Part shown: piece after piece, positions 4,892-54,568 of the stretch
Layout: every line of letters begins with the position of its first letter
How positions within the stretch are numbered: position 1 is the first letter of the stretch
NCBI GenBank assembly: GCA_045631605.1
Contig: JAZQVB010000052.1
Coordinates: 1-54,568, forward strand
Reading direction: 5' to 3'
Source of the DNA: Anaeroplasma sp.
Lineage (GTDB): Bacteria > Bacillota_I > Bacilli_A > Acholeplasmatales > Anaeroplasmataceae
DNA length: 54,568 nt
Position numbers and translations under genes: made by a program
The notes under the pieces: generated by a model
Seen by the model: the letters and a program-made list of their open reading frames with translations, nothing else
The model's database searches: none
What the model was told of the DNA's origin: nothing

Positions 4892-4896
4892 AAATA

Positions 4897-11896: not shown

Positions 11897-11899
11897 TTT

Positions 11900-15605: not shown

Positions 15606-15606
15606 T

Positions 15607-16140: not shown

Positions 16141-16151
16141 GGAGGGATTTT

Positions 16152-22003: not shown

Positions 22004-22016
22004 AAATGTTACCTCG

Positions 22017-23012
22017 CTATTTATAAGAAATTTTAATGTTGTTATTAACAACCTCTACTGTAGCTAAACCGCCACAGCGGATTGGTAATGTTGGTCCTAA
22101 ATGACCAATAGGTGCATCTAATATAATTGGCACATTAAATTCTTTTAATATATCTAAATAAGAATCATTAATGCTTACACCAAATGATTTGTCATAATAA
22201 TTTAAGCTTCTACCTATAACAAACATTTTTACATTTGAAAACCAACCAGCATATTTAAGCTGAGTTAATATTCTTCTAACAGAAATAGAGTTCAATTCGC
22301 AAGCTTCAAAGAAAAAGATAATTCCTTCATTCTTATGATTTTCTATATATTCCATAGTATTATCAAATTTTGTGCCACAAATAGTTGATAAGCAATCTAA
22401 ACATCCACCAATAATTCTTCCTTCAACAGGATTAGTATAATTGTTAGCAATAATTTTTGTTCTTTTATCGAAATTATATTTGGCTAATGGATTATCATTC
22501 TTCTTATTAAGCTGAAAGCTTTTGTATCCAGAAAAGTCTTTTTCTCCATGAAGCATATTCCATAAATCTAATGAATCATATTTAAATGGATAGCTATAGA
22601 AGCTTGCCGCGTGAACGCCATAAATAGTTTCTATATCACAAATAGTAGTAATAGTATATGTAAGATTAGTGTTATCAGAATAACCAGAAAACCATTTTGG
22701 ATTATTTTTTATATAATTAAAATCAATGTATTCTAGTGTTTCAATCATTGTTTCTCCACCACCAACAGACATAATCGCATCGCAATTGCTTTTCCAAGTC
22801 TCGTTAAACTCTCTAGCTCTAAGCTCTGGCGTGTTACTGCCGGCAACGCCATCATTTTTATAGACATTATCACCTAATACCACATTGTAGCCTAGTTTTT
22901 TAAAGTTTTTTAAAGATTCTTCTAATCTTTCCTTGTAAGGAGATGTCGTACAGCCAAATGATGGCGCTACAAGATAAATATTAGAGTTTTTATTAATAAA
23001 TTTTGGAATCAC
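22017..23012 (-). CDS. S66 family peptidase (LD-carboxypeptidase/MccF-like)
   Basis: VAPS, GYSDNT (catalytic Ser), GRIIGGCL, FFEACE, IGH. GTG start at 23012 after GGGGTG. Confidence 0.88.
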   Translation of the reverse strand: MIPKFINKNSNIYLVAPSFGCTTSPYKERLEESLKNFKKLGYNVVLGDNVYKNDGVAGSNTPELRAREFNETWKSNCDAIMSVGGGETMIETLEYIDFNYIKNNPKWFSGYSDNTNLTYTITTICDIETIYGVHAASFYSYPFKYDSLDLWNMLHGEKDFSGYKSFQLNKKNDNPLAKYNFDKRTKIIANNYTNPVEGRIIGGCLDCLSTICGTKFDNTMEYIENHKNEGIIFFFEACELNSISVRRILTQLKYAGWFSNVKMFVIGRSLNYYDKSFGVSINDSYLDILKEFNVPIILDAPIGHLGPTLPIRCGGLATVEVVNNNIKISYK

Positions 23013-34800: not shown

Positions 34801-36115
34801 ATACGCAATCAACTTAGAAGGCGTTAACTTTGATGAGGCTGGTACTTATACAGCAACTATCACTTATAATGGTATATCTTTTGAATTCGAAATTACTGTA
34901 GTTGCAGATGCTAAGCCATATATTGAAGGCTCATTAACTGTATCATTTAAGGATGACACAGCAAATGCAGCAGCAGATTATTTAGTATATGACAATTCAG
35001 CAATTTCAGGTTCATTACAAATTGGTAAATTTACATTAGTTGATAACGGTCAAGGAGTTGTTAAGGATAATAACGATTGGTTAAAGTTCAACACAGGCGG
35101 TAAGGTAACATTCGAGGTTGCAACACCTGCTACATTAACAATTTCATTCTATCAAGATCAAAATAATGTACAAGTAACAGTTAATGGTACAGTTGTTGAG
35201 GTAAACGCAGATGGAACATATACATTAACAGCAGGTAAGGTTGTTATTGAAGCAGTATCTAACGGATACATTGGTAAAGTTTCAGTAGTAGCTGGCTATG
35301 CATTAGATGATAGCTGTACAGTATCATTCAAGGACGATACAGCAAACGCAGCAGCAGATTATTTAGTATATGATAATTCAGCAATTTCAGGTTCATTACA
35401 AATTGGTAAATTTACATTAGTTGACAACGGTCAAGGAGTTGTTAAGGATAATAACGATTGGTTAAAGTTCAATACAGGTGGTAAGATTGTATTTAATCCT
35501 ACACGTGCTTCAGTTTTAACAATCACATTCTATCAAGATCAAAATAATGTACAAGTGACTGCAAACGGTGTAGTTGTTGAGGTAAACGCAGATGGTACAT
35601 ATACATTACCAGCAGGCGAAATCGTTATTGAAGCAGTATCTAATGGTTATATTGGCAAGATTTCAGCTGTATTAGCTGGACGTCCAGTATCTGTTTCAAC
35701 AGGCTTCAATTTTAAGGGTGGAACTTATAACAGCTCTAACACAAATACAGAAAACATTTTAAATGCTAATAACGCAGCTGAATTCAAAATTGAAAACACT
35801 GACGAAGTAACTTTTAATAATGTTACATTTAAGGGTGTTGTATCAAATGGCGATGACAACTGGTTAGCGTTAAAAACTAATGGTACTATTACATTTAATG
35901 TAGTAGAAAATGCAGAATTATACATGTATTATTATAATGGTCAAAATGTTGGTACTGTTACATTAAACGGTGAAGCTGTTACAACATCTTCAGCTACAAC
36001 AACAGATCATGCAACTCCATATGTATATTCATTAACTTCTGCAGGCGAAGTAGTAATTACGTTTACTTCAAACGGATATATCGGCTTCTTTGAAGTAGTT
36101 TATCCAGCAGAATAA
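31841..36115 (+). CDS. 1424-aa lipoprotein pectin methylesterase (CE8) with Ig-like domains and repeated C-terminal beta-sandwich modules
   Basis: Lipobox LSSC; PTTAP linker; CE8 motifs TTISQAL, GYQDTV, DFIFG, LGRPW; paralogous to 2070-4787. Confidence 0.88.
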   Translation: MKKKTLLVSALLASTALALSSCNPVETPTTAPTTEVPTTAPTETPTTAPTTAPTEVPTTTVDPTPTTSETPTETEKPTDGEQIPDGYELVTYSLDVTADLATGAVSETIKKSIFQVTGGEIRTRGKSWTDPEGVEPNKSFGQSIKNGPIVVTAPGDGVLSMYLQNGSSGAATQFVKITDNTGTSQTIEFSGNDAVAPYPSGSPVVKIDIEMEAGKSYTIERGNGGTIDWYLLEAKCVVEVSDVSGFSIVNPGKTEYLIGEEFDSSKLYLQLDYANGNADELPLSDVQIISSQYDSQVAGTYEIVVKYGEYLQSYEVTVYEAQSIQLQLDYSYKHSSNSAAGNGQYMNGKVKTIYSSADAALDTTYLTAVVSAKAGDKTTEFNLANTALEYTGFVAGAQGKQTITATASGVSASYDIYVVDTAAYTNADGEYVVTVDQAYTGNIGEVSGEKGNMFTTISQALEFVQNTNRVEKAGVKILNVGAGYYFEKLEITTPNLTIVGAGYTTGTYSKDENYNAETYATATIIEFDTLYGVTDTNGFVHTTDSTQTVAVRDTAINCTIKNLTISNAWNCIEYFEDQFGYNPSEHRALALLVQSDQFKLVDSSLLGYQDTVEFFTGRQLVQNSFISGTTDFIFGTNNTTLFENCTIHSIYNGSTDGGYVTAFKGSNKGSSDYVNYGAIFYKCNLTADSDVTEGNTALGRPWTKYAAVAYIECTMGAHISTAASTGSSKNERYVQMSGALPTDEACHFVEFGNTGAGAVAEQVAGMTMLTAEEAAKYCDYSVIFGTSNGLVSYNLAWDPTSDEIVEDVNTYYNFHAKEELTGTNYLWSATAGANGDGKVTSGSTYALGDLTIDCTSGQAAWNQNSGMTNFKTGAVLKLNVTAGSSVTVVAYSNQYAKFTINGVSTISDSLTQYFAEDTEVQIVITGDAYIKQIVVNPEAEAVSAELDSLAVTGLVKEYNVGGSFDASRLAVNAVYTDNTSKTLAEGEYAINLEGVNFDEAGTYTATITYNGISFEFEITVVADAKPYIEGSLTVSFKDDTANAAADYLVYDNSAISGSLQIGKFTLVDNGQGVVKDNNDWLKFNTGGKVTFEVATPATLTISFYQDQNNVQVTVNGTVVEVNADGTYTLTAGKVVIEAVSNGYIGKVSVVAGYALDDSCTVSFKDDTANAAADYLVYDNSAISGSLQIGKFTLVDNGQGVVKDNNDWLKFNTGGKIVFNPTRASVLTITFYQDQNNVQVTANGVVVEVNADGTYTLPAGEIVIEAVSNGYIGKISAVLAGRPVSVSTGFNFKGGTYNSSNTNTENILNANNAAEFKIENTDEVTFNNVTFKGVVSNGDDNWLALKTNGTITFNVVENAELYMYYYNGQNVGTVTLNGEAVTTSSATTTDHATPYVYSLTSAGEVVITFTSNGYIGFFEVVYPAE
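34937..35665 (+). repeat. Intragenic tandem duplication, 381-nt (127-aa) period
   Basis: TVSFKDDTANAAADYLVYDNSAISGSLQIGKFTLVDNGQGVVKDNNDWLKFNTGGK occurs identically at 34937 and 35318. Confidence 0.95.
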
Positions 36116-40153: not shown

Positions 40154-40193
40154 TTGCATAATTTTACAAAAGATATTATAATATCTTTGTAAA
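40154..40193 (+). promoter_or_regulatory. Sigma70 promoter TTGCAT-17-TATAAT overlapped by a long palindrome
   Basis: -35 at 40154-40159, -10 at 40177-40182; perfect 20-bp palindrome AAAGATATTATAATATCTTT at 40169-40188. Confidence 0.7.
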
Positions 40194-40276
40194 TATATGG
40201 CAAAACTAGAGTAATCTAGTGACGCAAAGCTATAGGGTCCGATTTTAAAATACTAAAAGGATAGCCAGTTGCATTA
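40192..40276 (+). ncRNA. c-di-GMP-I (GEMM) riboswitch aptamer
   Basis: GGCAAAACTAGA-GTAA-TCTAGTGACGCAAAGCTATAGGG...GATAGCCAGTTGCA: GGCAAA, GNRA-capped P2, GACGCAAAGC and AGCCAGTTGC hallmarks. Confidence 0.9.
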
Positions 40277-40335: not shown

Positions 40336-41091
40336 ATGAAAAAGAATTATAATTTAATTTCCTCTATTTTATCAATGCTGTTCACTCTTTTTTTATTAGT
40401 TTCTTTAGTAAGAGCTTGGTACGTAAAAAATGCACAAGCAGAGGCAACGGGTGTTACTGCCGTGACTGATAGCGATAAAATTTGGGACATCGAATTAAGA
40501 AGATGTAAGGCAGTTGAGGGAAATAATGATACATATACACTTGGTGGAGATTTATCAGATCCAAGTGTAACTATTGATCCATTTGATTTAGTTGCATCAT
40601 ATGATAAGATAATTTATCAAATAACTTTTAAAACAAATTTACCACAAATTTTATTAACTATGGAAAATACAGATTTGGCTAGAAGCGAGTCGTTTATCAG
40701 TAAACAAACTGAGGGCGTAGAAACAGATGACACATCTGATGACAAGTATATTCACCATAATTATCTAAGCAATGTTGCAAAGTTTTATTTATTAAACACA
40801 AACGATCATCAAAATTTCGAATTAAGTAATTCAGCATATAAATCATTTACATATTCGGGTAACCTACCTGTAGGAACAAATAAGGAAACGATTAGTATTA
40901 TAACTGTTGATGGTTTAGCTGAAGGGTCAAACGCTGAATATCAACAGGTATATGTATATATGCTATTTGATTATAATTCAGATAACATAAATGATTTATT
41001 TAACTATAACCTAGGTGCAGCAGCGTCTGCCTATGGTACATCAATTTTCTTTAAGGAAGACATAAGATTTGTTTTAAATATTATCGAATAA
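40336..41091 (+). CDS. Secreted protein with SipW-type signal peptide (TasA/CalY/BsaA-like subunit candidate)
   Basis: MKKN-hydrophobic-VRA|WYVKN; beta-rich body. Confidence 0.65.
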   Translation: MKKNYNLISSILSMLFTLFLLVSLVRAWYVKNAQAEATGVTAVTDSDKIWDIELRRCKAVEGNNDTYTLGGDLSDPSVTIDPFDLVASYDKIIYQITFKTNLPQILLTMENTDLARSESFISKQTEGVETDDTSDDKYIHHNYLSNVAKFYLLNTNDHQNFELSNSAYKSFTYSGNLPVGTNKETISIITVDGLAEGSNAEYQQVYVYMLFDYNSDNINDLFNYNLGAAASAYGTSIFFKEDIRFVLNIIE

Positions 41092-41114
41092 AAAATTTGT
41101 AAAGGAGAAGCAAT

Positions 41115-44100
41115 ATGAAACGATTAATATACATCATGTTAAACTTAATAGCTACATTTGCCATATTAGTCACTACTTCATATGCTTGGTATACAAATTA
41201 TTATGGAATACATGTATCAGACTCAGATAAACTATCATCAAATGCTAACTATTTCGCATCTGGAGATGGTACAGAGGCGAGCCCTTATGTGATAACAGAG
41301 GCAAGACATTTATATAATCTAGCTTGGCTTCAGGATTTAGGATATTTTGATGCAGATAAGGATTCAGATCCAAACACTGCAGGAAATCAAAAATTCTATT
41401 TTGAATTGGGCAATAACATAGATATGAGTCAATTATCTAAAAATGGTGTTCAATCGCCTATACCTTCAATTGGAATTGATTATCACCCATTTATTGGCAA
41501 TTTTAATGGCAATGGACATACAATTAACAATTTAAGAATTGATACTGACTTTGATAATTCAAATTACATAAAACCAGATAAAATAGTTTTAAATCAACAT
41601 ACCGAAACAATAACGAATAATACTATTTTGACTAGTTATGTAGGCTTATTTGGTCATATCGGACCTGTTGGCGACATTACTCAAGAAATTGAAGAAAAGG
41701 TTTCTAATTTCTATATTGATAATTCAATAATTAAATCAACTGTAAATTGTGTTGCAGGTATTATTGCCGGCTTTGTTAACACAAATGTTGAAGAGGTTGG
41801 TGTACATTATAGTTCTATTCAATTAGCTAGCGGTATTACTAATATCAATGGTCAAACTAACATAAGTAACTATACCCTAATAGGTGATTATAACATAGAG
41901 GATTTAAGCTGGGACGATAAGCCTACTGGTACAGATGATGGCTTATCTTATGGTGGTAACTTCGATGTAAAAAGATTAATGCAAAGATTAGCATTAATTA
42001 AAGATAATAAAGCATCAGACACGCCATCAAGTTATTTACCTAACGTTGATACTGGAAGTTCAAATCCAACAGTAGCCAAAGGACACATCTTACCTTTAAC
42101 AGTTGTTAATGAATTAACAGCGGACGTATATACAGGAGCTGACGCAAAAGAAACTGTATCTCCAGAAAATATAGGATATTTTTGTGGTAATGGTAACAAA
42201 ACAAATGTAATGAACCTTGCATTTGATGATTATACAGCAACAACTGAAGGCGGAAAAACGACATATTCATGGACCTCTGGTCGCGTTCCAAGAACATTCT
42301 TTAAGCGTACCGGCCAAAACGCAACAACAACAAGTGAAAATATTGTCGCAATGACTCCAGAAGAAATAAGTCAATTACCGGAAGGAATTCAAAATTTAAT
42401 TCCAAGTTCTAACCAAACAGTAAGATATGACTTAATAAGACTTCAAGAAAAATATTCAGGAACGCAAGGTGACGGTACTGATAAGTTTGATATGAAAGAC
42501 TCAATAAGTTATCTAGATAATACATACACTAATGTATATTTACCAAATAATGGAATTTGGTTTAAGCCTACATTTACAGGTAAATTTAGATTTGTTATCT
42601 ACACAGGAAGTAACGGCCAGAACTTTTCTCTTTATAAACTTGATAGAGATTCTAATACGACTAATTTACAAACACATTTTGGTACAAATACACTATGGGG
42701 AGAAGCTTTAACTAATTTATATTCGTATGATTTACCTTTATATTCATTAATTTATTTTGAATATGATGTATCTCAAGAAGAGCTTGATGACAATGTAGAG
42801 TTCTTGTTGGCAAATGATCGAGATGGTAATGGTGCATACTTCTTATATCTTGATATCGGTATCAATGGTGGAAATGAAGATGATGAAGAACCAGATCCAA
42901 TCACAACATTTGGTTCAATTGATAACATAGATTTCGTTTACGAAACATCATCTGGCACATTAAGTAATATCGCAAACAATACTTTATATAGTGAAGTATT
43001 CTTCCAAATTTCTGGAACTACAACGGGATTAGTAGAATTCTATTTTAGAAGAAATAATGATGATTTAACAAATAATCAGGATGTAGTATTATATTTCCCT
43101 GATTCAAGTAACAATGGAACAACGCTTGAATGGTCTCAAGCAGGTAAAAAAGGTAAGGCCAAGGATGAAACATGTCACGAATTAGAGGGCAGCTTATCTG
43201 AAGGCGGCATTGTTGGTTCTGGTGGTGGCGGAGGTTCGTCAAGCGGTCCTACAATAACATATAACACAGTTACATATTATGTTGATGAAATAGCTAACTC
43301 AGTACTTGTAAGAAACGGATCTAAGGTATCATTGCCAACTCCAACTAAGGCTGGATACAGATTCACAGGTTGGTACACTAACCAAGCATGTACAGAACTA
43401 TTTGATATGAATACAGCAATTACTGACGATTCTGTAGTATTATATGCAGGATTTGAACCAATTGTAACATACACAGTAACGTTCAATACAAATGGTGGTT
43501 CATCTACTCCTAGTCAAACGGTAGAAGAAAATGGTTTAGCAATAAGACCTTCAAATCCAACAAGAGACGGATATACATTTGAAGGTTGGTATACAACAGA
43601 AAACTTCACAGAAGCATTTGATTTCTCAACGCCAATTACAGGTGATACTACATTATATGCTAATTGGATTGAAAATTCATCTGGTGGAGATACTGAATTA
43701 AGTTACAACTTAAATGTATCTGATTTAACTGCCGGTACTATTAGTGCAGAAACTAATAATGTAGGTAATACTATTTATTCATTAATCGCAGATTCAACTA
43801 ATACACTGGTTATTGATTCAGCAAGTGTTACAGTTGATGGTGTTGATTATTCACTAAGATTAAAAACAGGCGGTTCTGGTTCAACTACTAAGCGTGCAAT
43901 TAAGTTTACAGTTGCTGAAGCTGGTACATTAGAAGTAGTATTAATGTCTGGTAATACTTCTAACGTGAGAGAACTAGTTGTTTCTGATGGTTCTAACGAG
44001 GTTGGTAGATTAACGGCTGGTGCAACTGCAACTAAGGAAGTAATTACATTAGAAGCTGGTACATATTATTTATATTCTGGCAATAGTGGAATTAATATTT

Positions 44101-44834
44101 ACGCAATTAACTTTACTGAAGGTGCTGTTACACCAACACCTAAACAATATACAATAACGTTTGAATCAGATGGTTCAGTTTATAATGAGCAAATCGTTAC
44201 AGAAGGTTCAATAATTACTGAACCAACAGACCCGACAAGAGATGGTTATACATTTGGTGGTTGGTATATTGATGAGAACTTTACAAATGCTTATAATTTC
44301 AACACGCCAATAGAAAATTCATTTACACTATATGCTAAGTGGGATGAAATTCAATCTGGTGGCGATGAAACAACTGAACAATTCTTTGCAGAAAGCCTTG
44401 CCGGTGGTACTGGTATCGATAAGAACAAAGTTATTTACGAAGGTACAGCATTCACAATTACTAACGGTGCTGGTGGTAAGACTGAGCCTGTTCAATGTGC
44501 TTTCCCTGCTGTTGCAAATGACGATTCTAACTTAGTATTCAATTATGGTTTACTTCCTACAGGTGGTGCTAGAACTGCTATCGTAACAGCTAACCAAGAT
44601 ATTACAATTACTATTTACTTTACAAGCTCAGATAGTAAGTTCACTACAGGTGGTGCTGGTTATGGTAAGGGTGGCGAATTAACAGTTAACGGAACACAAG
44701 TTGAAACTGTTGCTGGCAATAAGCTTAACGATGTTGCTTATGCATACACTATGACTTTAGCTGCTGGTGAAACTGCTGAATTTGGTGTTTCTTCTAACAG
44801 ATTCGTATTATTCGGTTTAGTTGCAGAATCGTAA
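41115..44834 (+). CDS. 1239-aa adhesin-like protein: SipW-type signal, GLUG/M26-like domain, three InlB-B repeats, CBM77-like and shared C-terminal module
   Basis: TTSYA|WY; FASGDGTEASPYVI...FIGNFNGNGHTINNL; PT(K/R).GY.F.GWY repeats; RLKTGGSGSTTKRAIKFTV...MSGN..R module. Confidence 0.78.
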   Translation: MKRLIYIMLNLIATFAILVTTSYAWYTNYYGIHVSDSDKLSSNANYFASGDGTEASPYVITEARHLYNLAWLQDLGYFDADKDSDPNTAGNQKFYFELGNNIDMSQLSKNGVQSPIPSIGIDYHPFIGNFNGNGHTINNLRIDTDFDNSNYIKPDKIVLNQHTETITNNTILTSYVGLFGHIGPVGDITQEIEEKVSNFYIDNSIIKSTVNCVAGIIAGFVNTNVEEVGVHYSSIQLASGITNINGQTNISNYTLIGDYNIEDLSWDDKPTGTDDGLSYGGNFDVKRLMQRLALIKDNKASDTPSSYLPNVDTGSSNPTVAKGHILPLTVVNELTADVYTGADAKETVSPENIGYFCGNGNKTNVMNLAFDDYTATTEGGKTTYSWTSGRVPRTFFKRTGQNATTTSENIVAMTPEEISQLPEGIQNLIPSSNQTVRYDLIRLQEKYSGTQGDGTDKFDMKDSISYLDNTYTNVYLPNNGIWFKPTFTGKFRFVIYTGSNGQNFSLYKLDRDSNTTNLQTHFGTNTLWGEALTNLYSYDLPLYSLIYFEYDVSQEELDDNVEFLLANDRDGNGAYFLYLDIGINGGNEDDEEPDPITTFGSIDNIDFVYETSSGTLSNIANNTLYSEVFFQISGTTTGLVEFYFRRNNDDLTNNQDVVLYFPDSSNNGTTLEWSQAGKKGKAKDETCHELEGSLSEGGIVGSGGGGGSSSGPTITYNTVTYYVDEIANSVLVRNGSKVSLPTPTKAGYRFTGWYTNQACTELFDMNTAITDDSVVLYAGFEPIVTYTVTFNTNGGSSTPSQTVEENGLAIRPSNPTRDGYTFEGWYTTENFTEAFDFSTPITGDTTLYANWIENSSGGDTELSYNLNVSDLTAGTISAETNNVGNTIYSLIADSTNTLVIDSASVTVDGVDYSLRLKTGGSGSTTKRAIKFTVAEAGTLEVVLMSGNTSNVRELVVSDGSNEVGRLTAGATATKEVITLEAGTYYLYSGNSGINIYAINFTEGAVTPTPKQYTITFESDGSVYNEQIVTEGSIITEPTDPTRDGYTFGGWYIDENFTNAYNFNTPIENSFTLYAKWDEIQSGGDETTEQFFAESLAGGTGIDKNKVIYEGTAFTITNGAGGKTEPVQCAFPAVANDDSNLVFNYGLLPTGGARTAIVTANQDITITIYFTSSDSKFTTGGAGYGKGGELTVNGTQVETVAGNKLNDVAYAYTMTLAAGETAEFGVSSNRFVLFGLVAES
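44371..44510. repeat. Inverted repeat copy B (matches 1-140)
   Basis: 137/140 nt identity to the reverse complement of 1-140. Confidence 0.95.
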
Positions 44835-44904
44835 TAAAATCAAGCAATAAAACTATCTAACAATAGTTATCGCACCTTTTATTACACTAAAATTTTAATA
44901 ATTA

Positions 44905-44945
44905 AGAGTCAGTTACATGAAAAAATGTGACTGACTTTTATTATT
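44905..44945 (+). terminator. Intrinsic terminator after the 1239-aa gene
   Basis: gagtcagttacat-gaaaaa-atgtgactgactt followed by T-rich tract. Confidence 0.75.
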
Positions 44946-44989
44946 TATAATAATAAATACACAAATAAATTTCTTTTCTTCACATATAA

Positions 44990-45018
44990 TTGAATAAAAT
45001 TCGAAAATGATTTATAAT
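44990..45018 (+). promoter_or_regulatory. Sigma70 promoter TTGAAT-17-TATAAT
   Basis: -35 at 44990-44995, -10 at 45013-45018. Confidence 0.7.
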
Positions 45019-45024
45019 ATAGCT

Positions 45025-45211
45025 GAAGAAGAACGAAAACCCATTTGAATATTTTATGAGAAAAAGTCATTTCTTTTTGGTATGCACTTTTTTCGTAAGA
45101 TAAGAAAACATTTATACTAGAAAATCTAGTAGTAATTATGCTTATCTTCAATGGGATTAATAATTAGCTGTCACTAGATTTTAAAATCTGAATTGACAGC
45201 TAATTTTTTTT
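45025..45211 (+). ncRNA. Unassigned structured leader RNA or sRNA ending in a terminator
   Basis: Nested stems 45040-49/45147-55, 45051-67/45086-101, 45099-104/45141-46, 45115-21/45125-31; terminator 45162-73/45194-205 plus U8 directly before AGGAGG. Confidence 0.6.
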
Positions 45212-45222
45212 AGGAGGCTAAC

Positions 45223-45951
45223 ATGAAAAATAACAATTTAATATTTTCGGTATTTTCTCTGTTAGCTACTATGTTTTTATTAGTGTGCATTGTAACAGCG
45301 TGGTATGCCACTAACACAGAGGCTGACGCTAGCGGAATATTTGGATCAACCTTAGGAAACAATTATTCACTTAAGCTACAAAGAGCTAAGGTAGATAACG
45401 AGGGAAATATAATAGGCTGGATACAAACGGATAACCTAGCGTTTAGTAATATAAATCCAGGTAATGTATTTTTATTTAGAATAGAGCTTAATACAGATAA
45501 GGAAGTAGAATTTAATGTTAGGTTTGCTGATGTATCATCAAGCTTAGTAAATAATAAGCTTGTAGCTATAGATGATTGGATATGCTTAAATCAGGAAGGA
45601 TACAAGCTTTATAAATTAGAAAATAACCAAGTAATAATTCAAGACAAGATTTTATATGAATATAGGGAAGGAGAAGTAAAATTAAAGGATTACCTAATTC
45701 ATAACACCATTTATTTTTATGAATTAAAAGAAGAACCAACCACCACCACAATACCAAATGAATTAAATGGAACAATATTACCAAATGTTTCAAATTATAA
45801 TATCTCATCTACAGATGAGCTGAAGTATTTCTATTTTGCATTAGAGTTTAATGAAGGATTATCATTAGTAGAAATTGATGGATATGAAAGTAGTAATTGT
45901 TATTTATATCAAAAATTAACTATTGGTTATATATCAATTACTAAAATTTAA
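45223..45951 (+). CDS. SipW-type signal peptide protein, TasA/CalY-like
   Basis: IVTA|WYATN; FSNINPGNVFLFRIEL resembles the n..PG motif of TasA/CalY. Confidence 0.68.
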   Translation: MKNNNLIFSVFSLLATMFLLVCIVTAWYATNTEADASGIFGSTLGNNYSLKLQRAKVDNEGNIIGWIQTDNLAFSNINPGNVFLFRIELNTDKEVEFNVRFADVSSSLVNNKLVAIDDWICLNQEGYKLYKLENNQVIIQDKILYEYREGEVKLKDYLIHNTIYFYELKEEPTTTTIPNELNGTILPNVSNYNISSTDELKYFYFALEFNEGLSLVEIDGYESSNCYLYQKLTIGYISITKI

Positions 45952-45969
45952 AAAGGGGGTTGAAGCAGT

Positions 45970-46635
45970 ATGAAAAAGAGAATATTTGCAATAATTTTTA
46001 TGATATTTGCTGTTGTATTTAGTATTGCTTCAATGTCAGTAACGTCTGCATGGTATGTCAATGTTACAAACATTGGTAGAATTGATGCGGAAACAAAGGA
46101 TTTAACATTTGCCTATAGATTTAATGGTAATGAAGAAAATGAATTAGAATATAATGTGAAAAATTTAACATTTTTTGATATAACATCTTCAAGAGAAATA
46201 AAATATTTTTTAAAAATGTGTACTGTAGTTACACTAGAGATATCTAATAATTCTAACGAAAATGTTAATTATTGGATTAATTATTATTCAAATAAAACAG
46301 TATTAAAGGAAAACGATGATATCGTTTCAATATCCTACGCTGCAAGCTTTATTTTACCTAATAGGCTTGAAAGCGTAGATGAATATAATTCGATTAACAA
46401 TTTAATATCAGCGTCTAATAGTAGCTCAAGCTCATATTCAATTTTATTTGAGGATCAATGTTTAGCAAATGATGTAAAAACATTGTATTTATATTTGTTT
46501 GGTGTTCAAGAAATAGCTTCTGCTAACAATAGCTTTTTAATAGATTCAACTGGCAAGGCTATAGAATATGGATTTAATATAACAATACATTCAGAAGCGG
46601 CATATAGCGCTCCTGATGTAAATGAGGTTAATTAG
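45970..46635 (+). CDS. SipW-type signal peptide protein
   Basis: SVTSA|WYVNV; LEISNNSNENVNY strand motif. Confidence 0.68.
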   Translation: MKKRIFAIIFMIFAVVFSIASMSVTSAWYVNVTNIGRIDAETKDLTFAYRFNGNEENELEYNVKNLTFFDITSSREIKYFLKMCTVVTLEISNNSNENVNYWINYYSNKTVLKENDDIVSISYAASFILPNRLESVDEYNSINNLISASNSSSSSYSILFEDQCLANDVKTLYLYLFGVQEIASANNSFLIDSTGKAIEYGFNITIHSEAAYSAPDVNEVN

Positions 46636-46644
46636 GAGGGCAAT

Positions 46645-47382
46645 ATGAAAAATAAAATAATAATACTTATTGGCAGCATTATTATGGTTTTATCATTAGC
46701 TTTTGTATTTGCCGCATTCGTTTTTCATAAGGTAGTAGATGGTACTGCTGAATCTGGAAATATAGTGGTTAATGAAAAATATTTCTTAAATTGTGCTCCA
46801 TTAATAAGTGATTTAGAGGAATCTGATGATTATTTAACAGCACTAAAGGAAAGAAATAGTGAGCCTACTAAAATCAGCACATCATATAAAAACAGTATTA
46901 CATGCTATGCGACAGAGAAAAAGGGATATAACGATGAATTAGAATATGATGGTGAAGAATATTTTTATTTGAATCAATTAGGATTTCAATTTTCATTTAC
47001 TAATACTATTTCAGTATATGTAAGAATTCATTTTGAGGATGCGTGGGTATCTCAAAAAACATATACAAATGGGTCAGTGACTAAAAATTATATTACTAAG
47101 GATAAATTAGAGGATAATAAAACACCATTTGATATTGCTGATGATAGCTGGGTTTATGATGAGGCAACTAACTGCTTATACCTAAAAACAATGGTTAAGC
47201 CTCAAAATAATGAGATGAAATATTCGTTTTATATAAATGAGGAATATTGGTATACGTCTACAAATGTTAGTAAAGCATTTCGCGAACAAATATTAGTAGA
47301 GGTATCTTATTTTGTAGACATTGTTCAAGCTAATAGAGCGGAATTAAAGTGGGGAGTAGATTTTGACAATCTATTCAGCTAA
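46645..47382 (+). CDS. SipW-type/BsaA-like secreted protein
   Basis: FVFA|AFVF; VYVRIHFEDAW and WVYDEATNCLYLKTMVKP motifs; C-terminal VQAN...WGV. Confidence 0.62.
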   Translation: MKNKIIILIGSIIMVLSLAFVFAAFVFHKVVDGTAESGNIVVNEKYFLNCAPLISDLEESDDYLTALKERNSEPTKISTSYKNSITCYATEKKGYNDELEYDGEEYFYLNQLGFQFSFTNTISVYVRIHFEDAWVSQKTYTNGSVTKNYITKDKLEDNKTPFDIADDSWVYDEATNCLYLKTMVKPQNNEMKYSFYINEEYWYTSTNVSKAFREQILVEVSYFVDIVQANRAELKWGVDFDNLFS

Positions 47383-47394
47383 GGAGGCATAATT

Positions 47395-50300
47395 ATGCTA
47401 TTTAAGATTAATAAAAAGCTAATAATTTTAATAATGCTATCAATATTATGTTTCGTTGTAACTGTATGCTTAATTGATTGTATTGAGGTTAAAAAGGGTA
47501 GTGATTTTAAATCATATACAGGTCAATATAATTCACCTCAGCATGAAATATATAGCTATTCAACTCCAACCGAGGTTACAACAACTAATATGAGTGAATT
47601 ATATTCAATCAATAACAATGTAGTTACCTCAACTAATGCAAATGTTGTTGGTACTATAAACATTATGAATGCGACGGATTTATATGCATTTTCAGCTCTT
47701 GCTAATAGGGATGATCGTTTTTTAAGCTATAATTATCAATTGTTATCAAATATTGATTATAATGAAATAAATTATGATTTTATCCCAATTGCTTGGGATA
47801 ATAACAAGTATTTTAAAGGAGCATTTAATGGTAATGGCTATGAAATATCTAATCTAAGCCTACTATCAATTTTATCAGGAGATACAGCCTATAAAATGGA
47901 ATACTACGCAATGTTTTCTAAAATAGGAAGTGGAGCTGTAGTTACTAATTTTGGTCTTAGAGATACAAATATAGTAATAAACGGTATGTGGGATGAGCTG
48001 AAGGGCGTATCAGTGGCGGTAGGATATGTTGATGCAGGAGCTACAGTATCCTATGTATTCTCATCAGATTTAAGAGACCCTATTTTAGATGAATCGGGTA
48101 TTACTGCCTCTGGAGGTCATCGTATATCTGGATTAGTATTTGAAAATAACGGCTTTATGGTTAATTGCTATACAGCGTATAATATCGTATCGAATTATAC
48201 AATTGATGATTATATTGACTTTACTGAAATATTAATGATAAATTCAGGAGAAATAGAGAGCTTATATTTTTATAATGAAACAATTAGTGAATATGTAAAT
48301 AATGATTCAATATATACTATAGTTTATAAGGAGCCTGTAGGTAAAACATTAAAGCTAGTCAATCATTATGGTGAATATTGTGAATCATTAGATTCTCTTA
48401 ATGAAATGGTAAGTGAATCATCTATAAATTGGTTTACGGCAAGCTCGTATAATACATTATCGATATACTTAAATAAAATAATTACTCCAATTACTAGAGG
48501 AATTATAGTTGAATTAAAGGATGGAAAATATATATTTAAAATCAATAATGAGCGTGATTTTAGCTATATGTTTGAGCTTATGAATATAAATGATAATTTC
48601 GCTTCAGATAAGATGGTTTATGAAATATGTAATGATTTAAATCTATCCATGATATCTGAGAATAATTATTATTATTCTAGAGGTATTAATTCAACAATTA
48701 AGGGTGTTGAAACTACAGGAAGCGTAGAGCTATCAAATGGTAAAATATCACCATATCCAACTATTTATTACGCTTCTATTAATAATCATATAACAACAGA
48801 GGGTATAGATGCTCATGGTGTATTTGCATGGCTAACAGGAAGTATCATTGATTTAAACTTTGTTTTACCTTCGAAAATAGAAATTGAAAACACATCGACA
48901 AATTTAAAGGCTATTGGTATTGTTGCCGGATATGTTGATGGTGGGAAAATAAATAATGTTAATGTTTACGCTAATGAATTATGTATATCTAATTCTATAG
49001 GTAAATATTACTTAGGTGGAATATGTGGTATTTTATCAGGAGAAGGAGAAATATCAAATTCTACAGCATCTGGAAGCATTAATAATATAGATGGTGAATA
49101 TAACGGCTCATATAACGTTATTGGCTATATGAACGGCTCTGCCATAGGTGGATTAATAGGATATATTACTAGCACAATGGGCAGTGTGAAATCTAACCTT
49201 TCGGTTATGAATATTACTACAGTAGGTATTGAAGGTGCTGATTTATCTGTTGGTGGTGTAATAGGAGCTGGATATACATATGATGCTTATGAACTTGAAA
49301 ATCAAGGTAATATTGTAGTTGGTAGTCAAGCTTTAAGAGCTAAATATTTAAATCTTTATGTATCAGGTGTAATAGGAAGACACCTTGGCTTAGCTAATCA
49401 AATTAATAAGCTTACAAATCAAGGAGATATTAAGGTTTATTCTAATAATAGTAATAATTCATATTTATATTTATCAGGAATTGAAAATGCTGATATTATA
49501 ACATCTCCAGCTAATAACCTTGCCGTATCAAGGTTGAAATCAAAGGGTAGGTTTGTATTTTATGCAAGCTCACTGGCCAATAGCGGAAGCATAGAAATTT
49601 ATAATACAGACTCTAATTTAGAATATACAAGCGGAATTAATATATTTTCTAAAAATGGATTTGAATCTACATTATCAGGAATATATAACCTAGGCTATAA
49701 AAAAATAAATGGACATATTACAAAGCTTGATAATCAAGAAATTAATATGTCTAATACTAATAAATACGCACCAGTTGTTAATACAATAAACACGAATAAT
49801 TCATCAAATCAAGGCGTTACATTATCTACAGTATATAACCTAAGAAGCTATAATTTTATAAATACAGCCAATATAAATAGCTCAAATTTATTATATTCAG
49901 GCTGTATTTTAGGAAGCTACATTAATTATACTGATGTAAGAAACGAAGGCAATTTAAGCTTTTCAAATTCATATCAAATTGGTAGCTCATCGAATAAAGC
50001 TAATATCAAAATAGTGGGCATATTTAATGAGCTTAATAGCGGATACAAGGCAGACACTCTATTTAATGATGGAAATATTGAATTTATTGTTAATTCATAT
50101 ATTTATGGTGATATCTTTATTAATGGAATTTGTTATTCAAACAGAAATGGATTTAATGATAACGAATTAAAGGAATTTAATCCATCAGATATAAATTACA
50201 ACAACAATAAAATAGGATCATTAAACAATGTTATTAATAATGGTGATATCACATGTACAAGTACAGTATTTACAAATGGTGTATCATATACATCTGAGGA

Positions 50301-53300
50301 CTATAAGGGTATTAATGGCCAACAAACCATCGGTACTAGATGGACAGCTACATTAAACGATTCTACAAGGCTAATAAAGGGTAATATTAATTGTGCAGGT
50401 ATTACATATATTAACGAAAGCGTCATTACAAATACATTTAATTTAGGTAATATATTCGCAGCAAATTATATTAACGAAGCTACAATGACAGATATAAATG
50501 CCGGTGGTATATCTATATTAAATATAGGTAAGTATGCCTATATTGAAAATAGTGCTAATAATGGTAATATAAAGGCTATGAATTTATCCTCATCAGTAAA
50601 TTCTAATGTAAATGCCGCAGGTATTACAGTAAGAAATGATAAGCTTGAAAATGGCTCTGATTATTTAGGTGGAAATGATCATGCTCATCAGCTAATTGCG
50701 TTTACGATTAACTATGGTGGAGTATATTCATATAATTATTGTGAAAATATTACAGACAGCTCATTAGAGGCAGCGTGTAAATCAGCTGGAATTCTTGCGA
50801 TGGGATTATGTAATATAATTAATACAGTTAATTACGGTAACATTTACGGAAGCGAAACCGCAAGTGGAATCTTCGGTATAGTTTATTTCTCTAAATTTTC
50901 ACAGGATGTATCAAATATAAATAAGGTTAATTTAGCTAATTCAATTAATTACGGAAATGTTTATGTAATTGAAAAGGGTACAAATAATTTTACAAATTTG
51001 AATTTAAAAAGCCAAACATATAATGATTTTATAAATATGTCAGATTCTAATAAGGATAGCTTTGCTAAGCTAGAAATTATATTAGAATTTGGTAAAAACA
51101 CATTTAGTGGCTCAATATTTTCAATCATTAACTTTAATAATGATAGAAATGCTGAAAATGTATCGATTAGATATCTAATCAGCTTCTTAGAAAATACAAC
51201 TCTAGTTGGAGCTGAGGCTTCAACTCCTAGCTCAATAAATATTGATATATCAAAAATGTATTCAGCATATTATAAATTTATAAATGGATACGATACCTTT
51301 GATAAATATATGGGCAAGCAGGTAATATATTCTCCTTTAAGCACAGGTGAGGAAAAGGGATATGTTGGTGTATTTAGTGATAAATTTACCTTTAGACAAG
51401 CAATAGAGGGAAAAATAGAGCTTGATATAGATGAAAATCCAACAGATCAATTTATTACAGACTATTTCCAATTTGTCGCATATCAAAAGATTAATAGTAA
51501 TCTATTAGATAAGATTGGCTGGAGAACAATAGCGTATTTTACGGCAGCTAATGATTTTGCCCAAAATCTTGAGGCAGTATCATTATTGCTATCTAATTAT
51601 AAAAATAATATATCGTATACAGGCTATACTATCTTAGTAGAAGAAGCCTTAGATACTGCGTTGTGGATGCAATATTGTAGTGATAATACAATACATTTAA
51701 TAGTCGAAAAGCTGTTAAAGGATAATAATTATGATATGACCTTAGGTATGCTTGAATACCTACTTGATAAGGATAATCCTATATCTATTTTAATTGACTC
51801 ATCTGTAAGAAAGGATGTTGTTGAGTCTTTAATTACAGAGCTAGAAAAAATTAATAGTGATTTTGAATTATCAAATTATATAGATGAGATATTAAATTAC
51901 GAAATTGGCTTTTCTAGTGTAATGGCTGATATATTACTATCGTCAGTAAATAGTGATTTAAAGGATTATTTAACAGCTTATATAGAAGATATAAGCATGA
52001 ACGATAAGGAAGAATTATTAGATTTATATATCAATTATTTATATTTAAATGACTCATCATATTTTAATTACAGTAATAATGAGGCTATTAGATTAGAAAT
52101 ATTAGAGGAGCTATTTAATGATGTTGATGATGAAATATTATATAAATCATTAATTCTATATTTAGAGCTGGATAATGTTATACCTACTGATGAAATTAAA
52201 ATGTATTCTGTATTTAAAGGATTAACATCAGAGGAAAAGCTGAAATTATTCAGTGATATAATTGTTAATAATTCAGCTGAAATTATTCACAATTACTTAA
52301 ATTTGATGAGCTCTGATATTGAATTTTATCAAGAGCTTATTAATAATGGATACTCTATTTCTAGTGTTGATGAGGTATATTCTTTAATTGATATTACAAA
52401 TAAAAATGTTACAAATGAAATAGTAATTAACGAAAGAGTAGCCTTATATAATCAAATAAAAAATACTCAAACATTTAAGGATTATCTTAATACAAAGGTA
52501 TCAACGTATTACGCTTTGGCAACTGAGCATAATAATACCTTCCAATCAACTACAGCCCCTTCAAATAACGGTGCTTATTCAGGAGAGCTAACATATGCAT
52601 ATACTGAAAGTATAACTCCTAGTACATACTTTTATGGTCCATATACTAATGCCTCTGGTGGAACTAGAAGCTTCAACAATCCTGATAATGTAGGAGATAA
52701 TATCGCAAATTCAGGTAATACTGCAGGATATTATTCAATATTCACAACAACAGATTTGGAATATATAACAAGCCTTTATAACCAAGGAATAATCTATAAT
52801 TATGGAGTATTCTATTACGAATTCGGTGCTTCAGGAACAAATAACCAAATGGCTGGGGAAAACTATTTTAATAATGTTTATTACCAATCAGGAACAACAG
52901 ACTTTTCAGGTACAAGATTAGCTGATACAGCAATAACATTTACCGATAACACTAATACCACATATACAATATATGGTGGCACCGTATCAGCATTTAAAAG
53001 AACAGGTAATACCTCAACGGGTGTTAATACTACAACAACTGTCGCAGGTACATATGTTATTACAGATACTAATAACAAGGAATATACAATTAGCTCTACA
53101 CAACAAGGCTGGGTTAATTTTATTAGAAGCTATGGCGTGAAGTATTATATAGCCTATGTTAAAAATACATTCCACTCAACACAAGCTACAGGTATTTATA
53201 AATACAGTGAGCCATGGGGCAGCGTTGCCGCAAACTATTTTACATGGAAGAGTAGCTCTACACAGGTTTATACATCTCAATATATTGATTATAATGTTGA

Positions 53301-54568
53301 AGATTTATTGTTATTAGATGGTGTTTTAACCGGATATGATGATAAGACATTATCTAATGATGAAAGAAATATAATTAATAATTTATTTAATATATATTTC
53401 GCATCAGATAGTAGTAATTTTAAAAATATTATTGAAAAGGCATTATTCGAATCATTAGGTCAAAATGAGGAATATATTAATAGCTTTATAATTAAAAATA
53501 TATATTCAACATCTAAAATTAATAATAAAGAGCCATTTGAATATCTTAATATAAATTCAAATACTACCGTGAAGGATTATTTATTAAGCCAATATGTTGA
53601 GGCTGACTATAAGGAAAAGCTAATCTATTCAGCCTCAAGTAATAAGAATGCATATATTAAATTATTAGAACGTTTAATTTTAGCTAATAATAATACCTTA
53701 ACAGAGGAAGAAAAGGAAAATATATTAGGAAATATTCAAATAGAACAAATATCAGATTATACCGGAGAGGGCTTAGAGCTAAGTAAGGGTAGTGGTGAAT
53801 ACCAATTTGGATTAACCTTTAATACATTAAGCTTAGCTATTGATAACACAGCTAATAGGCTTATTTTAGTAATGGAATCTACTAATGCATCATCAGTGTT
53901 AACAATTACTGATAGCTTAGGTAACACATTACAAGCTATAGCTGCCTCAGCAGTAAATGAATATGTAATAGATTCAACACAATTACCTTCAAATATAATA
54001 TTAAATTCTAATAAGGATATTATTATTTATAAAATATATCAACAAATGGATGTATCTAATAATATATCTGATACAAGCTCAATCGCAGTAACATTATCCT
54101 CAAATACTGGTACATTTATAAACTCTAGTGAGATAGAAAATATAATTTATAATAGCTATCCAGAGCTTACAAATTTATCATATACAGTAGGCGTTACCGC
54201 AAGAGTAAATATTACATCAAATACATATTATGTAAGGTTATATAGTAATAATACATATATTTATTCATCAGGAAGTAGAATATCTAGTGGTACAACATTT
54301 ACAGTAAATAATATTAATAATTATTTAGGTCGTAGCTATTCATTATACGCAAATAGAAATAACGCAAACGCAACAGCTGTAAATCAGGCGGTTACTATAA
54401 ATACACTTACATATAATATTTCATTTACTGGTCAAATTAATAATCAAATAGTTACAGATTTAATATTATATGAGGATATTTTAAATAAGGCCTTAGATAA
54501 TTTAGTATCTAATTCATATATAGATGCGGTATTTAATAATGTATTAGATAATAAATATGATAATTATA
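47395..54568 (+). CDS. Giant (>2390 aa, partial) GLUG-motif surface protein
   Basis: Not in the ORF track because it has no stop in the window. AAGGAGG RBS; MLFKINKKLIILIMLSILCFVV...; FKGAFNGNGYEISNL; GIVAGY, LGGICG, IGGLIG, VGGVIG; many N.G.I repeats. Confidence 0.85.
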   Translation, partial: MLFKINKKLIILIMLSILCFVVTVCLIDCIEVKKGSDFKSYTGQYNSPQHEIYSYSTPTEVTTTNMSELYSINNNVVTSTNANVVGTINIMNATDLYAFSALANRDDRFLSYNYQLLSNIDYNEINYDFIPIAWDNNKYFKGAFNGNGYEISNLSLLSILSGDTAYKMEYYAMFSKIGSGAVVTNFGLRDTNIVINGMWDELKGVSVAVGYVDAGATVSYVFSSDLRDPILDESGITASGGHRISGLVFENNGFMVNCYTAYNIVSNYTIDDYIDFTEILMINSGEIESLYFYNETISEYVNNDSIYTIVYKEPVGKTLKLVNHYGEYCESLDSLNEMVSESSINWFTASSYNTLSIYLNKIITPITRGIIVELKDGKYIFKINNERDFSYMFELMNINDNFASDKMVYEICNDLNLSMISENNYYYSRGINSTIKGVETTGSVELSNGKISPYPTIYYASINNHITTEGIDAHGVFAWLTGSIIDLNFVLPSKIEIENTSTNLKAIGIVAGYVDGGKINNVNVYANELCISNSIGKYYLGGICGILSGEGEISNSTASGSINNIDGEYNGSYNVIGYMNGSAIGGLIGYITSTMGSVKSNLSVMNITTVGIEGADLSVGGVIGAGYTYDAYELENQGNIVVGSQALRAKYLNLYVSGVIGRHLGLANQINKLTNQGDIKVYSNNSNNSYLYLSGIENADIITSPANNLAVSRLKSKGRFVFYASSLANSGSIEIYNTDSNLEYTSGINIFSKNGFESTLSGIYNLGYKKINGHITKLDNQEINMSNTNKYAPVVNTINTNNSSNQGVTLSTVYNLRSYNFINTANINSSNLLYSGCILGSYINYTDVRNEGNLSFSNSYQIGSSSNKANIKIVGIFNELNSGYKADTLFNDGNIEFIVNSYIYGDIFINGICYSNRNGFNDNELKEFNPSDINYNNNKIGSLNNVINNGDITCTSTVFTNGVSYTSEDYKGINGQQTIGTRWTATLNDSTRLIKGNINCAGITYINESVITNTFNLGNIFAANYINEATMTDINAGGISILNIGKYAYIENSANNGNIKAMNLSSSVNSNVNAAGITVRNDKLENGSDYLGGNDHAHQLIAFTINYGGVYSYNYCENITDSSLEAACKSAGILAMGLCNIINTVNYGNIYGSETASGIFGIVYFSKFSQDVSNINKVNLANSINYGNVYVIEKGTNNFTNLNLKSQTYNDFINMSDSNKDSFAKLEIILEFGKNTFSGSIFSIINFNNDRNAENVSIRYLISFLENTTLVGAEASTPSSINIDISKMYSAYYKFINGYDTFDKYMGKQVIYSPLSTGEEKGYVGVFSDKFTFRQAIEGKIELDIDENPTDQFITDYFQFVAYQKINSNLLDKIGWRTIAYFTAANDFAQNLEAVSLLLSNYKNNISYTGYTILVEEALDTALWMQYCSDNTIHLIVEKLLKDNNYDMTLGMLEYLLDKDNPISILIDSSVRKDVVESLITELEKINSDFELSNYIDEILNYEIGFSSVMADILLSSVNSDLKDYLTAYIEDISMNDKEELLDLYINYLYLNDSSYFNYSNNEAIRLEILEELFNDVDDEILYKSLILYLELDNVIPTDEIKMYSVFKGLTSEEKLKLFSDIIVNNSAEIIHNYLNLMSSDIEFYQELINNGYSISSVDEVYSLIDITNKNVTNEIVINERVALYNQIKNTQTFKDYLNTKVSTYYALATEHNNTFQSTTAPSNNGAYSGELTYAYTESITPSTYFYGPYTNASGGTRSFNNPDNVGDNIANSGNTAGYYSIFTTTDLEYITSLYNQGIIYNYGVFYYEFGASGTNNQMAGENYFNNVYYQSGTTDFSGTRLADTAITFTDNTNTTYTIYGGTVSAFKRTGNTSTGVNTTTTVAGTYVITDTNNKEYTISSTQQGWVNFIRSYGVKYYIAYVKNTFHSTQATGIYKYSEPWGSVAANYFTWKSSSTQVYTSQYIDYNVEDLLLLDGVLTGYDDKTLSNDERNIINNLFNIYFASDSSNFKNIIEKALFESLGQNEEYINSFIIKNIYSTSKINNKEPFEYLNINSNTTVKDYLLSQYVEADYKEKLIYSASSNKNAYIKLLERLILANNNTLTEEEKENILGNIQIEQISDYTGEGLELSKGSGEYQFGLTFNTLSLAIDNTANRLILVMESTNASSVLTITDSLGNTLQAIAASAVNEYVIDSTQLPSNIILNSNKDIIIYKIYQQMDVSNNISDTSSIAVTLSSNTGTFINSSEIENIIYNSYPELTNLSYTVGVTARVNITSNTYYVRLYSNNTYIYSSGSRISSGTTFTVNNINNYLGRSYSLYANRNNANATAVNQAVTINTLTYNISFTGQINNQIVTDLILYEDILNKALDNLVSNSYIDAVFNNVLDNKYDNY

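Follow-up and report, generated by a model that had tools for sequence, protein, structure and literature searches.

A likely linker-and-adhesin half of a c-di-GMP-regulated, CoCoPALM-linked donor-strand pilus in Anaeroplasma

What do six co-oriented genes for secreted proteins, which run off the end of a contig of an Anaeroplasma sp., build at the cell surface, and where are the genes that process and assemble their products? The stretch analysed here (the window) is the whole 54,568-nucleotide (nt) contig JAZQVB010000052.1 of assembly GCA_045631605.1. It is contig C52 of a source genome of 1.84 Mb with 30% GC and an estimated completeness of 93%. The first-pass annotation had proposed a SipW-type fibre here. 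Its gene inventory is confirmed in the list of open reading frames (ORFs), with products of 251, 1239, 242, 221, 245 and >2391 amino acids (aa), called A1, A2, B1, B2, B3 and B4 below. The N-termini VRA↓WY, SYA↓WY, VTA↓WY, TSA↓WY and VFA↓AF are present as quoted, as are the motifs NINPG (B1), ISNNS (B2) and YVRI...W (B3). We consider, with a probability of about 55%, that the window encodes linker subunits (B1, B2, B3 and A1) and adhesins (B4 and A2) of a sortase-free, SipW-processed, TasA-like donor-strand fibre. Its assembly genes, and probably its shaft, would lie on another contig, C159, with A1 as the adaptor that adds A2. Most likely, then, the window is the linker-plus-adhesin half of a CoCoPALM-linked donor-strand pilus regulated by cyclic di-guanosine monophosphate (c-di-GMP). 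The genes concerned are:

45223..45951, + strand: B1, 242 aa, TasA-like subunit; AlphaFold2 (AF2) model with a predicted local distance difference test score (pLDDT) of 85, structural match to the TasA fibre
45970..46635, + strand: B2, 221 aa, subunit that likewise starts with W-Y; alignment of 24
46645..47382, + strand: B3, 245 aa, BsaA/TasA-like subunit adjoining the giant; AF2 β-sandwich, pLDDT 82
47395..54568, + strand: B4, giant secreted protein; the contig ends after its first 2391 aa
40336..41091, + strand: A1, 251 aa, predicted adaptor subunit; VRA↓WY, paired with A2 in 11 relatives
41115..44834, + strand: A2, 1239 aa, predicted strand-donating accessory adhesin; SYA↓WY, conserved core at about residues 1-690 and a lineage-specific tail
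L006 (G000:C159) 771-16800: the other half of the proposed system, with genes for six subunit-like proteins, two peptidases resembling SipW, an McrB-like GTPase and its DUF2357 partner

Close homologues of these proteins are labelled Anaeroplasma sp. or Acholeplasmatales, and DNA contigs from four animal-gut runs match each of the six genes in part, with 88-99% identity.

Cleavage sites, SipW peptidases and subunit folds

A site consisting of a small residue followed by W-Y/F, or by A-F, is conserved across each subunit family. At the first mature position, the B1, B2 and A1 alignments show W without exception, and Ala1 is 97% conserved in B3. With a motif pattern derived from these same proteins, so that the counts show clustering and not a p-value, the cleavage-type motif is found in 10 of the 164 secreted-like ORFs of at least 150 aa in the genome. 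Five of these ORFs lie in the window, three at the sipW locus of C159, one at the sipW locus of C46 and one elsewhere. This clustering exceeds chance.

As the first-pass annotation had noted, the window lacks sipW, and no SipW-like gene is present on the whole contig. The peptidase it had expected elsewhere was found: SipW-like genes occur in the genome on C159 (two) and C46 (one), beside further A↓W proteins. TIGR02228 gives five matches in the genome, of which one, on C159, exceeds the cut-off, and both C159 SipWs retain the Ser, His and Asp motifs. C159 begins with two GGDEF/EAL-like genes (assigned from a reading of motifs); these are followed by six genes for subunit-like proteins, sipW2, the gene of an NTPase of 517 aa, that of a DUF2357 protein of 802 aa and sipW1, with c-di-GMP-I riboswitches at 12469-12549 and 16716-16791. 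One of these riboswitches precedes a c-di-GMP turnover gene, making a feedback loop possible. On C46 (L081, G000:C46, 2487-5796), three proteins of 231-285 aa with GFA-S/A↓W-Y/V N-termini are followed by the SipW-like gene. No sortase (PF04203) was matched in the 93% complete genome, and no LPxTG anchor was found on a credible protein. A wall-less host was considered and ruled out by the penicillin-binding-protein and Mur-ligase domains in the genome.

The C159 NTPase has an N-terminal hydrophobic stretch, located at residues ~45-92 in all six examples examined, followed by Walker A and B motifs and an NxD motif (GISGTGKT, LDEMN and GTANKD, i.e. N-K-D). Its family matches are weak (AAA_5; E. 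coli (Escherichia coli) McrB structure, E 0.009). The partner protein matches DUF2357 (PF09823) at 42-46 bits and ends in a charged, coiled-coil-like segment in which no nuclease family was detected.

The structural evidence for a TasA-like fibre comes mainly from B1. Its AF2 model is a β-sandwich in which mature residues 1-19 have pLDDT <50 and the N-terminal strand is free and unpaired. In a VIA search of 48,161 chains, the top structural match of this model was the TasA fibre 8aur (Z 7.9, root-mean-square deviation 2.8, 124 residues aligned), and the next row stood at Z 6.0, 1.9 below the top. The same list also holds strand-complemented pilins, namely the cannulae 9bac and 9h8b, FimA, PapG and the archaeal thread 7pnb. 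In the B3 model, residues 1-6 have pLDDT <50. Weak matches to the BsaA model TIGR04090 were obtained in 5 of 49 distant B3 relatives (13-18 bits against a cut-off of 60), and the atlas neighbours of B3 include a cluster with 14% PF12389 (camelysin); neither PF12389 nor TIGR04090 matched the window proteins themselves. We infer donor-strand exchange because the unpaired, conserved N-terminal strands fit it. The idea of a sortase-free heteropolymeric fibre thus keeps its footing in the B1 model, the SipW genes and the lack of a detected sortase, but not in its original form: the window holds two cassettes, the assembly core is on C159, and strand exchange is deduced from the free strands.

It should be mentioned that N5 of B1 is 95% conserved and E182 is present, and that B3 has K129 with no conserved Asn in its strand. 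In B1 no Lys is conserved at ≥80%, which gives no indication of isopeptide locking of the BsaA type. A complex prediction of B1, B2 and B3 with the last 168 aa of the giant returned a score of 0.00 with an uncertain fold of the partner, and was used neither for nor against binding.

Several observations weigh against a TasA-like fibre. No subunit among the six window proteins exceeded any cut-off of the Pfam and NCBIfam models. The SipW-cognate signal peptide model TIGR04088, which had been suggested as a check, gave no match on the six proteins and none in the genome; two sister-family homologues of B2 score 15.3 and 17.1 bits on it, against a cut-off of 19. The B1 Z-score of 7.9 lies within the range that the tool states as typical of chance best matches (7-8), and a Foldseek search with the B1 and B3 models returned nothing at E ≤ 0.001. 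Profile searches of the PDB with the B1 and B3 alignments likewise gave nothing credible. Despite its modest Z, we count the B1-TasA match because the top match is the one that had been predicted beforehand. With B3, generic Ig-like domains take the top VIA rows (best Z 6.6), and TasA is not among the best 50 rows; the TasA/CalY-like fold that had been proposed is thus favoured by the B1 model with its unpaired N-terminal strand, and by the weak BsaA and camelysin links of B3, but not by the structural matches of B3. The B1, B2 and B3 profiles have no detectable mutual similarity, so that a shared fold for B2 is an assumption. The W-Y/A-F motif is missing from the giant, in which no domain resembling the subunits was detected either. 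Finally, the McrB-like GTPase, present in 130 of 225 genomes of the order, is far more widespread than B3 (homologues in 65 of 225), so the B genes form an optional module.

Two predicted transcription units and the A1-A2 pair

The six genes had been regarded as one unit. The intergenic elements, which are as follows, argue for two.

40189..40276, + strand: c-di-GMP-I riboswitch aptamer upstream of A1-A2; Rfam RF01051, 63.4 bits, E 3.9e-10
44903..44940, + strand: intrinsic-terminator-like hairpin closing the A unit; 16-bp stem and T-run, consensus match only
44990..45018, + strand: sigma70-like promoter site for the B unit; TTGAAT-17-TATAAT, 10/12, consensus match only, such sites occurring in the region at chance frequency (36 found, 45 expected)
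45024..45222, + strand: structured 5' leader of B1; fold z = -5.05, hairpin and T-run at its end, 45162-45211

The terminator-like hairpin and the promoter-like site both lie between A2 and B1, and the A and B genes are separable cassettes with different distributions among genomes, so that a single six-gene unit is not upheld. In a close relative (G016), the same upstream genes lead straight to a riboswitch and B1 with no A cassette, and because of this the A1-A2 pair looks inserted in the window. No gut-run contig piece listed bridges a repeat at the A2 end; it is thus the assembly, together with synteny, that supports the join of A2 to the B genes.

The aptamer before A1-A2 is a full-length member of the c-di-GMP-I (GEMM) class, spanning positions 1-87 of the 87 of the model and exceeding the gathering score of 35 bits, and it shows no difference from that class. 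In the loci of relatives, a c-di-GMP-I riboswitch precedes B1 in 8 of 9 cases and A1 in 6 of 9. Conservation of c-di-GMP control across relatives is therefore supported, and the riboswitch that had been proposed stands for the A unit; for the B unit of the window it does not, since the Rfam scan found no riboswitch before B1. The B1 leader, for which Rfam gave no credible match, contains a GEMM-P1-like hairpin and then a terminator-like hairpin just ahead of the ribosome site. It is nearly identical in the gut-run contigs, and no full-length DNA relative of it was found in 105 family genomes, which returned only short matches at chance level. A degenerate c-di-GMP-I or c-di-AMP riboswitch was considered for this leader and rejected, as the core motifs are absent in the alignment and Rfam gives no match. 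The leader is possibly a replacement regulatory element.

A1 and A2 form a separate gene pair seen in 11 relatives. The similarity of A1 to B1 (hhalign, probability 88%, E 2.8e-6) is limited to columns 1-30, about the first 30 mature residues. As A1 resembles B1 in these residues, just as TapA resembles TasA in its N-terminal residues, we liken A1 to TapA. The A2 core, to about residue 690, belongs to a family of 127 unnamed proteins, and its residues 263-594 are also found inside some giants. Of the complete copies in relatives, 9 of 10 have 579-705 aa and one has 1915 aa; none aligns past ~690, and the tail is missing in all 11 relatives. The tail contains the following modules, with a third Flg_new repeat at residues ~1012-1079:

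43257..43673, + strand: Listeria-Bacteroides (Flg_new) repeats 1-2; PF09479, 188 bits, 3 stretches, and TIGR02543, approximate boundaries
43686..44144, + strand: module homologous to pectate-lyase small domains; PDB 8wc1 E 7.7e-20, 8x8h E 2.1e-12
44371..44824, + strand: C-terminal domain; both ends near-identical in DNA to a lipoprotein-gene end (assembly repeat)

The pectate-lyase-type module, which resembles the C-terminus of the window's pectate lyase lipoprotein, is possibly a carbohydrate-binding module; the two PDB entries are labelled simply as pectate lyase chains, and no ligand paper for them was found in the open-access searches. The C-terminal domain has no PDB match at E<0.05. Within the last ~450 nt of A2, one end is 97.9% identical over 140 nt to window positions 1-140 and the other is 100% identical over 66 nt to C69. 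The GC content of the tail is 36.6%, as in the lipoproteins, against 32.5% for the core. By sequence comparison, the tail is lineage-specific and its last domain appears as a copy from a lipoprotein gene. The view of A2 as a pectin-binding adhesin thus retains its homology to pectate-lyase modules, but the module sits on a tail that none of the relatives has; pectin binding is possible in this strain and would not be the central function of the system.

Several neighbouring features touch on this tail. Window positions 1-7467 (-) and 31841-36115 (+) encode large pectinolytic lipoproteins (two pectinesterases and a pectate lyase) with PT-rich linkers and Big_3 and Flg_new domains, whose tail modules are common with A2. 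Recent domain swapping is suggested, because one module shared by a lipoprotein and A2 is near-identical in DNA. In the 1424 aa pectinesterase lipoprotein, a domain of ~125 aa is duplicated almost exactly near the C-terminus (window 33000-35700 within 31841-36115). A secreted protein of at least 2,477 aa at G000:C114 3-7433 (-) shares Flg_new and pectate-lyase-type modules with A2. Apart from these genes, a 138 aa ORF at window 21635-22051 (-) consists of five near-identical repeats of ~19 aa, of the YYIDSEGFVRQSSSPSNKYG type.

The giant protein and related loci

The C-terminal 1098 aa of B4 are found on contig C199, giving about 3,600 aa overall. Twelve complete relatives have 3,616-4,336 aa, and the sole hydrophobic stretch shared by all of them is N-terminal. 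No Pfam family was found in any of eight full-length giants, and B4 has no PDB match below E 0.5. The description of the giant as a GLUG protein (PF07581) is not sustained: the window giant scores 19.3 bits against a cut-off of 20.5, and none of the eight full-length relatives contains GLUG. What emerges is a conserved family of 3,600-4,300 aa proteins with neither a Pfam nor a PDB match.

This family is closely tied to B3. The two genes are adjacent in 18 of the 18 family genomes fetched, and the order B1-B2-B3-giant is found in 15 of these 18, with one B2 among the 15 intact loci assigned by position and motif alone. Of 106 family genomes, 39 contain B3 and 41 contain the giant C-terminus, with both present in 38.

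In the synteny check that had been proposed, a set of 20 stretches from 16 genomes of sister families shows the window and C159 halves as one locus, ordered as C159-type subunits, sipW2, NTPase, DUF2357 partner, B1-like gene, sipW1, riboswitch, B2-like gene, B3-like gene and giant. All 20 stretches have the B3-like gene, the giant (fragmented in one case) and the GTPase, and 19 have a SipW-like gene. Seven are second copies without sipW1 and the DUF2357 partner, and the first copies carry the nuclease-less McrC partner. Orthology is indicated by hhalign for B1 (92%) and B2 (89%, E 2.1e-6) and by BLAST for the C159 genes. The locus is intact and in one piece in single-contig sister-family genomes such as G225-G230, G151 and G238; in genome G001, a sipW pair lies 5-11 kb from B1. 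A separate related-loci search with B3 as query returned no relatives.

In the sister-family giants (2,300-2,500 aa), the first ~1,300 aa and two internal blocks are conserved, whereas the C-terminus varies and in some ends in CBM5/12-like repeats. As read by eye, their hydrophobic stretch ends in A-x-A-like sites. Because the C-termini vary and some giants share a domain with A2, we favour the reading of the giant as an adhesin, which is likely on its sequence features. These A-x-A-like sites and swapped C-termini fit a distal adhesin better than the base of the fibre, the place the giant had been given. The giant C-terminus was also considered as a subunit-like acceptor and rejected, as it has no profile similarity, its atlas scores are ≤0.79 and it is replaced in many sister-family giants.

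Beyond the sister families, we examined 20 further GTPase matches chosen for spread. The DUF2357 partner follows the GTPase in 20 of 20, SipW-like genes are nearby in 19, and giant homologues occur in 6. The GTPase is found in 25 of 25 genus genomes, mostly as a single copy with 75-92% identity, and at a looser cut-off in 147 of the 399 class genomes scored. In distant Bacilli (L156, L157 (G424, G382), L147, L148, L151 and L158) the core of subunits, sipW2, GTPase, DUF2357 partner and sipW1 is kept and the cargo differs; it includes other secreted-like proteins of 1,200-2,500 aa, and L151 and L158 have SipW fusions of 720-830 aa.

Riboswitches of the c-di-GMP-I class mark the sister-family and C159 loci. 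Tandem arrays of two to four precede the sister-family loci at L126 2184-2507, L129 3529-3877, L127 14517-14707 (these three Rfam-confirmed) and L137 17436-17813 (by motif only). Paralogous cassettes were also seen in family members, at L092 (G009:C11) 1560-12703, L094 126-8128, L099 10953-19999 and L091 2280-5812. They comprise another very large protein, a protein of ~1,010-1,070 aa whose N-terminus is of the A↓YF type, as well as genes resembling A1/B1 and B2 that are in some cases divergent from B1.

Assembly models and known systems

In the assembly that we propose, c-di-GMP would switch the A and B units. Sec would export the precursors, and SipW1/2 would cut them after the small residue. 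The freed W-Y or A-F strand of one subunit would then fill the β-sandwich of the next. B1-B2-B3 would serve as a fixed linker attaching the giant adhesin, with the shaft more likely formed by a C159 subunit (or B1). A1, with its B1-like strand, would plug into the site of B1 and bring along A2 as an accessory tip that can be exchanged. At the membrane, assembly may be organised or powered by the GTPase and its McrC-like partner. In this strain, A2 would have gained its tail from the pectinolytic lipoproteins, which may add plant-glycan binding.

Fibres of the TasA type are described as assembling by themselves, given SipW and either a chaperone or a nucleator, and we know of no dedicated NTPase for them. 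We put forward only tentatively, and short of even odds, the broader idea that the product of CoCoPALM loci is a donor-strand pilus powered by nucleotides. An McrB GTPase of restriction origin, anchored in the membrane, would act with a nuclease-less McrC to drive or order the assembly of SipW-cleaved, TasA-like subunits, and a fixed B1-B2-B3 linker would display an adhesin of 2,300-4,300 aa with swappable A1-A2 tips. Riboswitches for c-di-GMP would control the whole, in Acholeplasmatales as well as in other Bacilli that have been little studied.

An unlikely but substantial alternative is that the small proteins are released biofilm-matrix polymers, like BsaA/BsaB of Clostridium perfringens or TasA/CalY of Bacillus cereus, and that the giant and A2 are co-regulated adhesins secreted separately, like BsaC. 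The passages available on the bsa operon describe such a combination of SipW, two TasA-like proteins and a large vWA protein (PMC11580942); the weak BsaA matches of B3 relatives and the giant's lack of a SipW-type N-terminus would also fit. What speaks against separate secretion is the adjacency of B3 and the giant in 18/18 and 20/20 loci together with their near-identical genome distribution, and the W-Y strand of A2, which remains paired with A1. We hold as less probable still the model of the first-pass annotation, in which all six genes form one heteropolymer under a single riboswitch, its pectin-binding tip being A2 and its membrane-anchored base the giant. Co-orientation, the upstream riboswitch, the likeness of the A2 module to pectate-lyase domains, the many pectinolytic lipoproteins of the window and the N-terminal position of the giants' only shared hydrophobic stretch are all in keeping with it. 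Against it stand the terminator between A2 and B1, the separate occurrence of the A and B cassettes including riboswitch-B1 without an A cassette in G016, the absence of the A2 tail in 11/11 relatives, and the A-x-A-like sites and swapped, in some cases CBM5/12-like, C-termini of sister-family giants, which fit a distal adhesin better.

Least probable of the alternatives weighed is a conflict or defence system, in which the McrBC-like pair would act on nucleic acid or phage and the surface proteins would be sensors, decoys or uptake filaments. CoCoPALMs are indeed described, in the passages available, as CoCoNuT-like (PMC11090510). The GTPase belongs to the McrB family on weak matches (AAA_5; E. 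coli McrB, E 0.009) and its partner has DUF2357, but this partner ends in a charged coiled-coil-like segment with no nuclease family detected. Defence genes typically show a patchy spread; the GTPase, in contrast, is present in 25/25 genus genomes, mostly single-copy and at 75-92% identity, and c-di-GMP control fits attachment. The donor-strand fibre with a linker-borne giant adhesin remains our preferred reading. It suggests sortase-free surface attachment in a large group of mostly uncultured Bacilli, and the one-piece sister-family locus makes the idea directly testable if those genomes represent cultured strains.

Among known systems, the closest comparison is the TapA-SipW-TasA fibre of Bacillus subtilis (PDB 8aur; PMC9674648). 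According to the parts of that paper available, TasA fibres polymerise via N-terminal donor strands, and the N-terminal residues of TapA resemble those of TasA. Both systems would thus have a SipW-like peptidase, an N-terminus of the small-residue↓aromatic type, a β-sandwich with a free strand, no sortase, and an accessory protein sharing the N-terminal strand, which is TapA there and A1 here. Unlike the TasA fibre, the present system has at least nine small subunit types, adhesins of 600-4,300 aa, c-di-GMP-I riboswitches, a pair of SipW paralogues and a GTPase with an McrC-like partner; it also has no sequence family match over cut-off, and its polymerisation is predicted. The C. perfringens sipW-bsaA-bsaB-bsaC operon, whose BsaA oligomers are modelled as donor-strand chains with isopeptide locking in the text available (PMC11580942), and B. 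cereus TasA/CalY/CapP, with its known TasA/CalY heteropolymers (PMC13082335), resemble it in having several TasA-like subunits, SipW, a large accessory protein and heteropolymers. In contrast to these, no vWA or CapP-like family was detected here.

Among the top listings of the open-access searches there was no account of this locus or of SipW fibres in Anaeroplasma or Acholeplasma, subscription papers and a possible CoCoPALM follow-up being outside the search. CoCoPALM was named by Bell et al. 2024 from gene context and, in the passages available, left for later study (PMC11090510, PMC10542128); its neighbouring peptidase is likened there to SipA (PMC11090510). Those passages mention neither substrates nor a link to TasA, a giant adhesin or a riboswitch, and a search of the paper's supplement, with the figure supplement outside its scope, found nothing on Acholeplasma, TasA or SipW. 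None of the CoCoPALM core genes lies in the window itself. C159 and its relatives share with CoCoPALM, as far as the passages describe it (PMC11090510), an McrB-like GTPase of the NxD type, a DUF2357 coiled-coil partner and flanking genes of the signal-peptidase family. The N-terminal hydrophobic stretch of the GTPase may correspond to the FtsB-like transmembrane and coiled-coil segment expected of CoCoPALM. On the features compared (NxD GTPase, DUF2357 partner and signal-peptidase neighbours), the C159 core would fit CoCoPALM. TasA-type fibres and CoCoPALM would thereby be linked, with candidate pilins, adhesins and a regulator for CoCoPALM.

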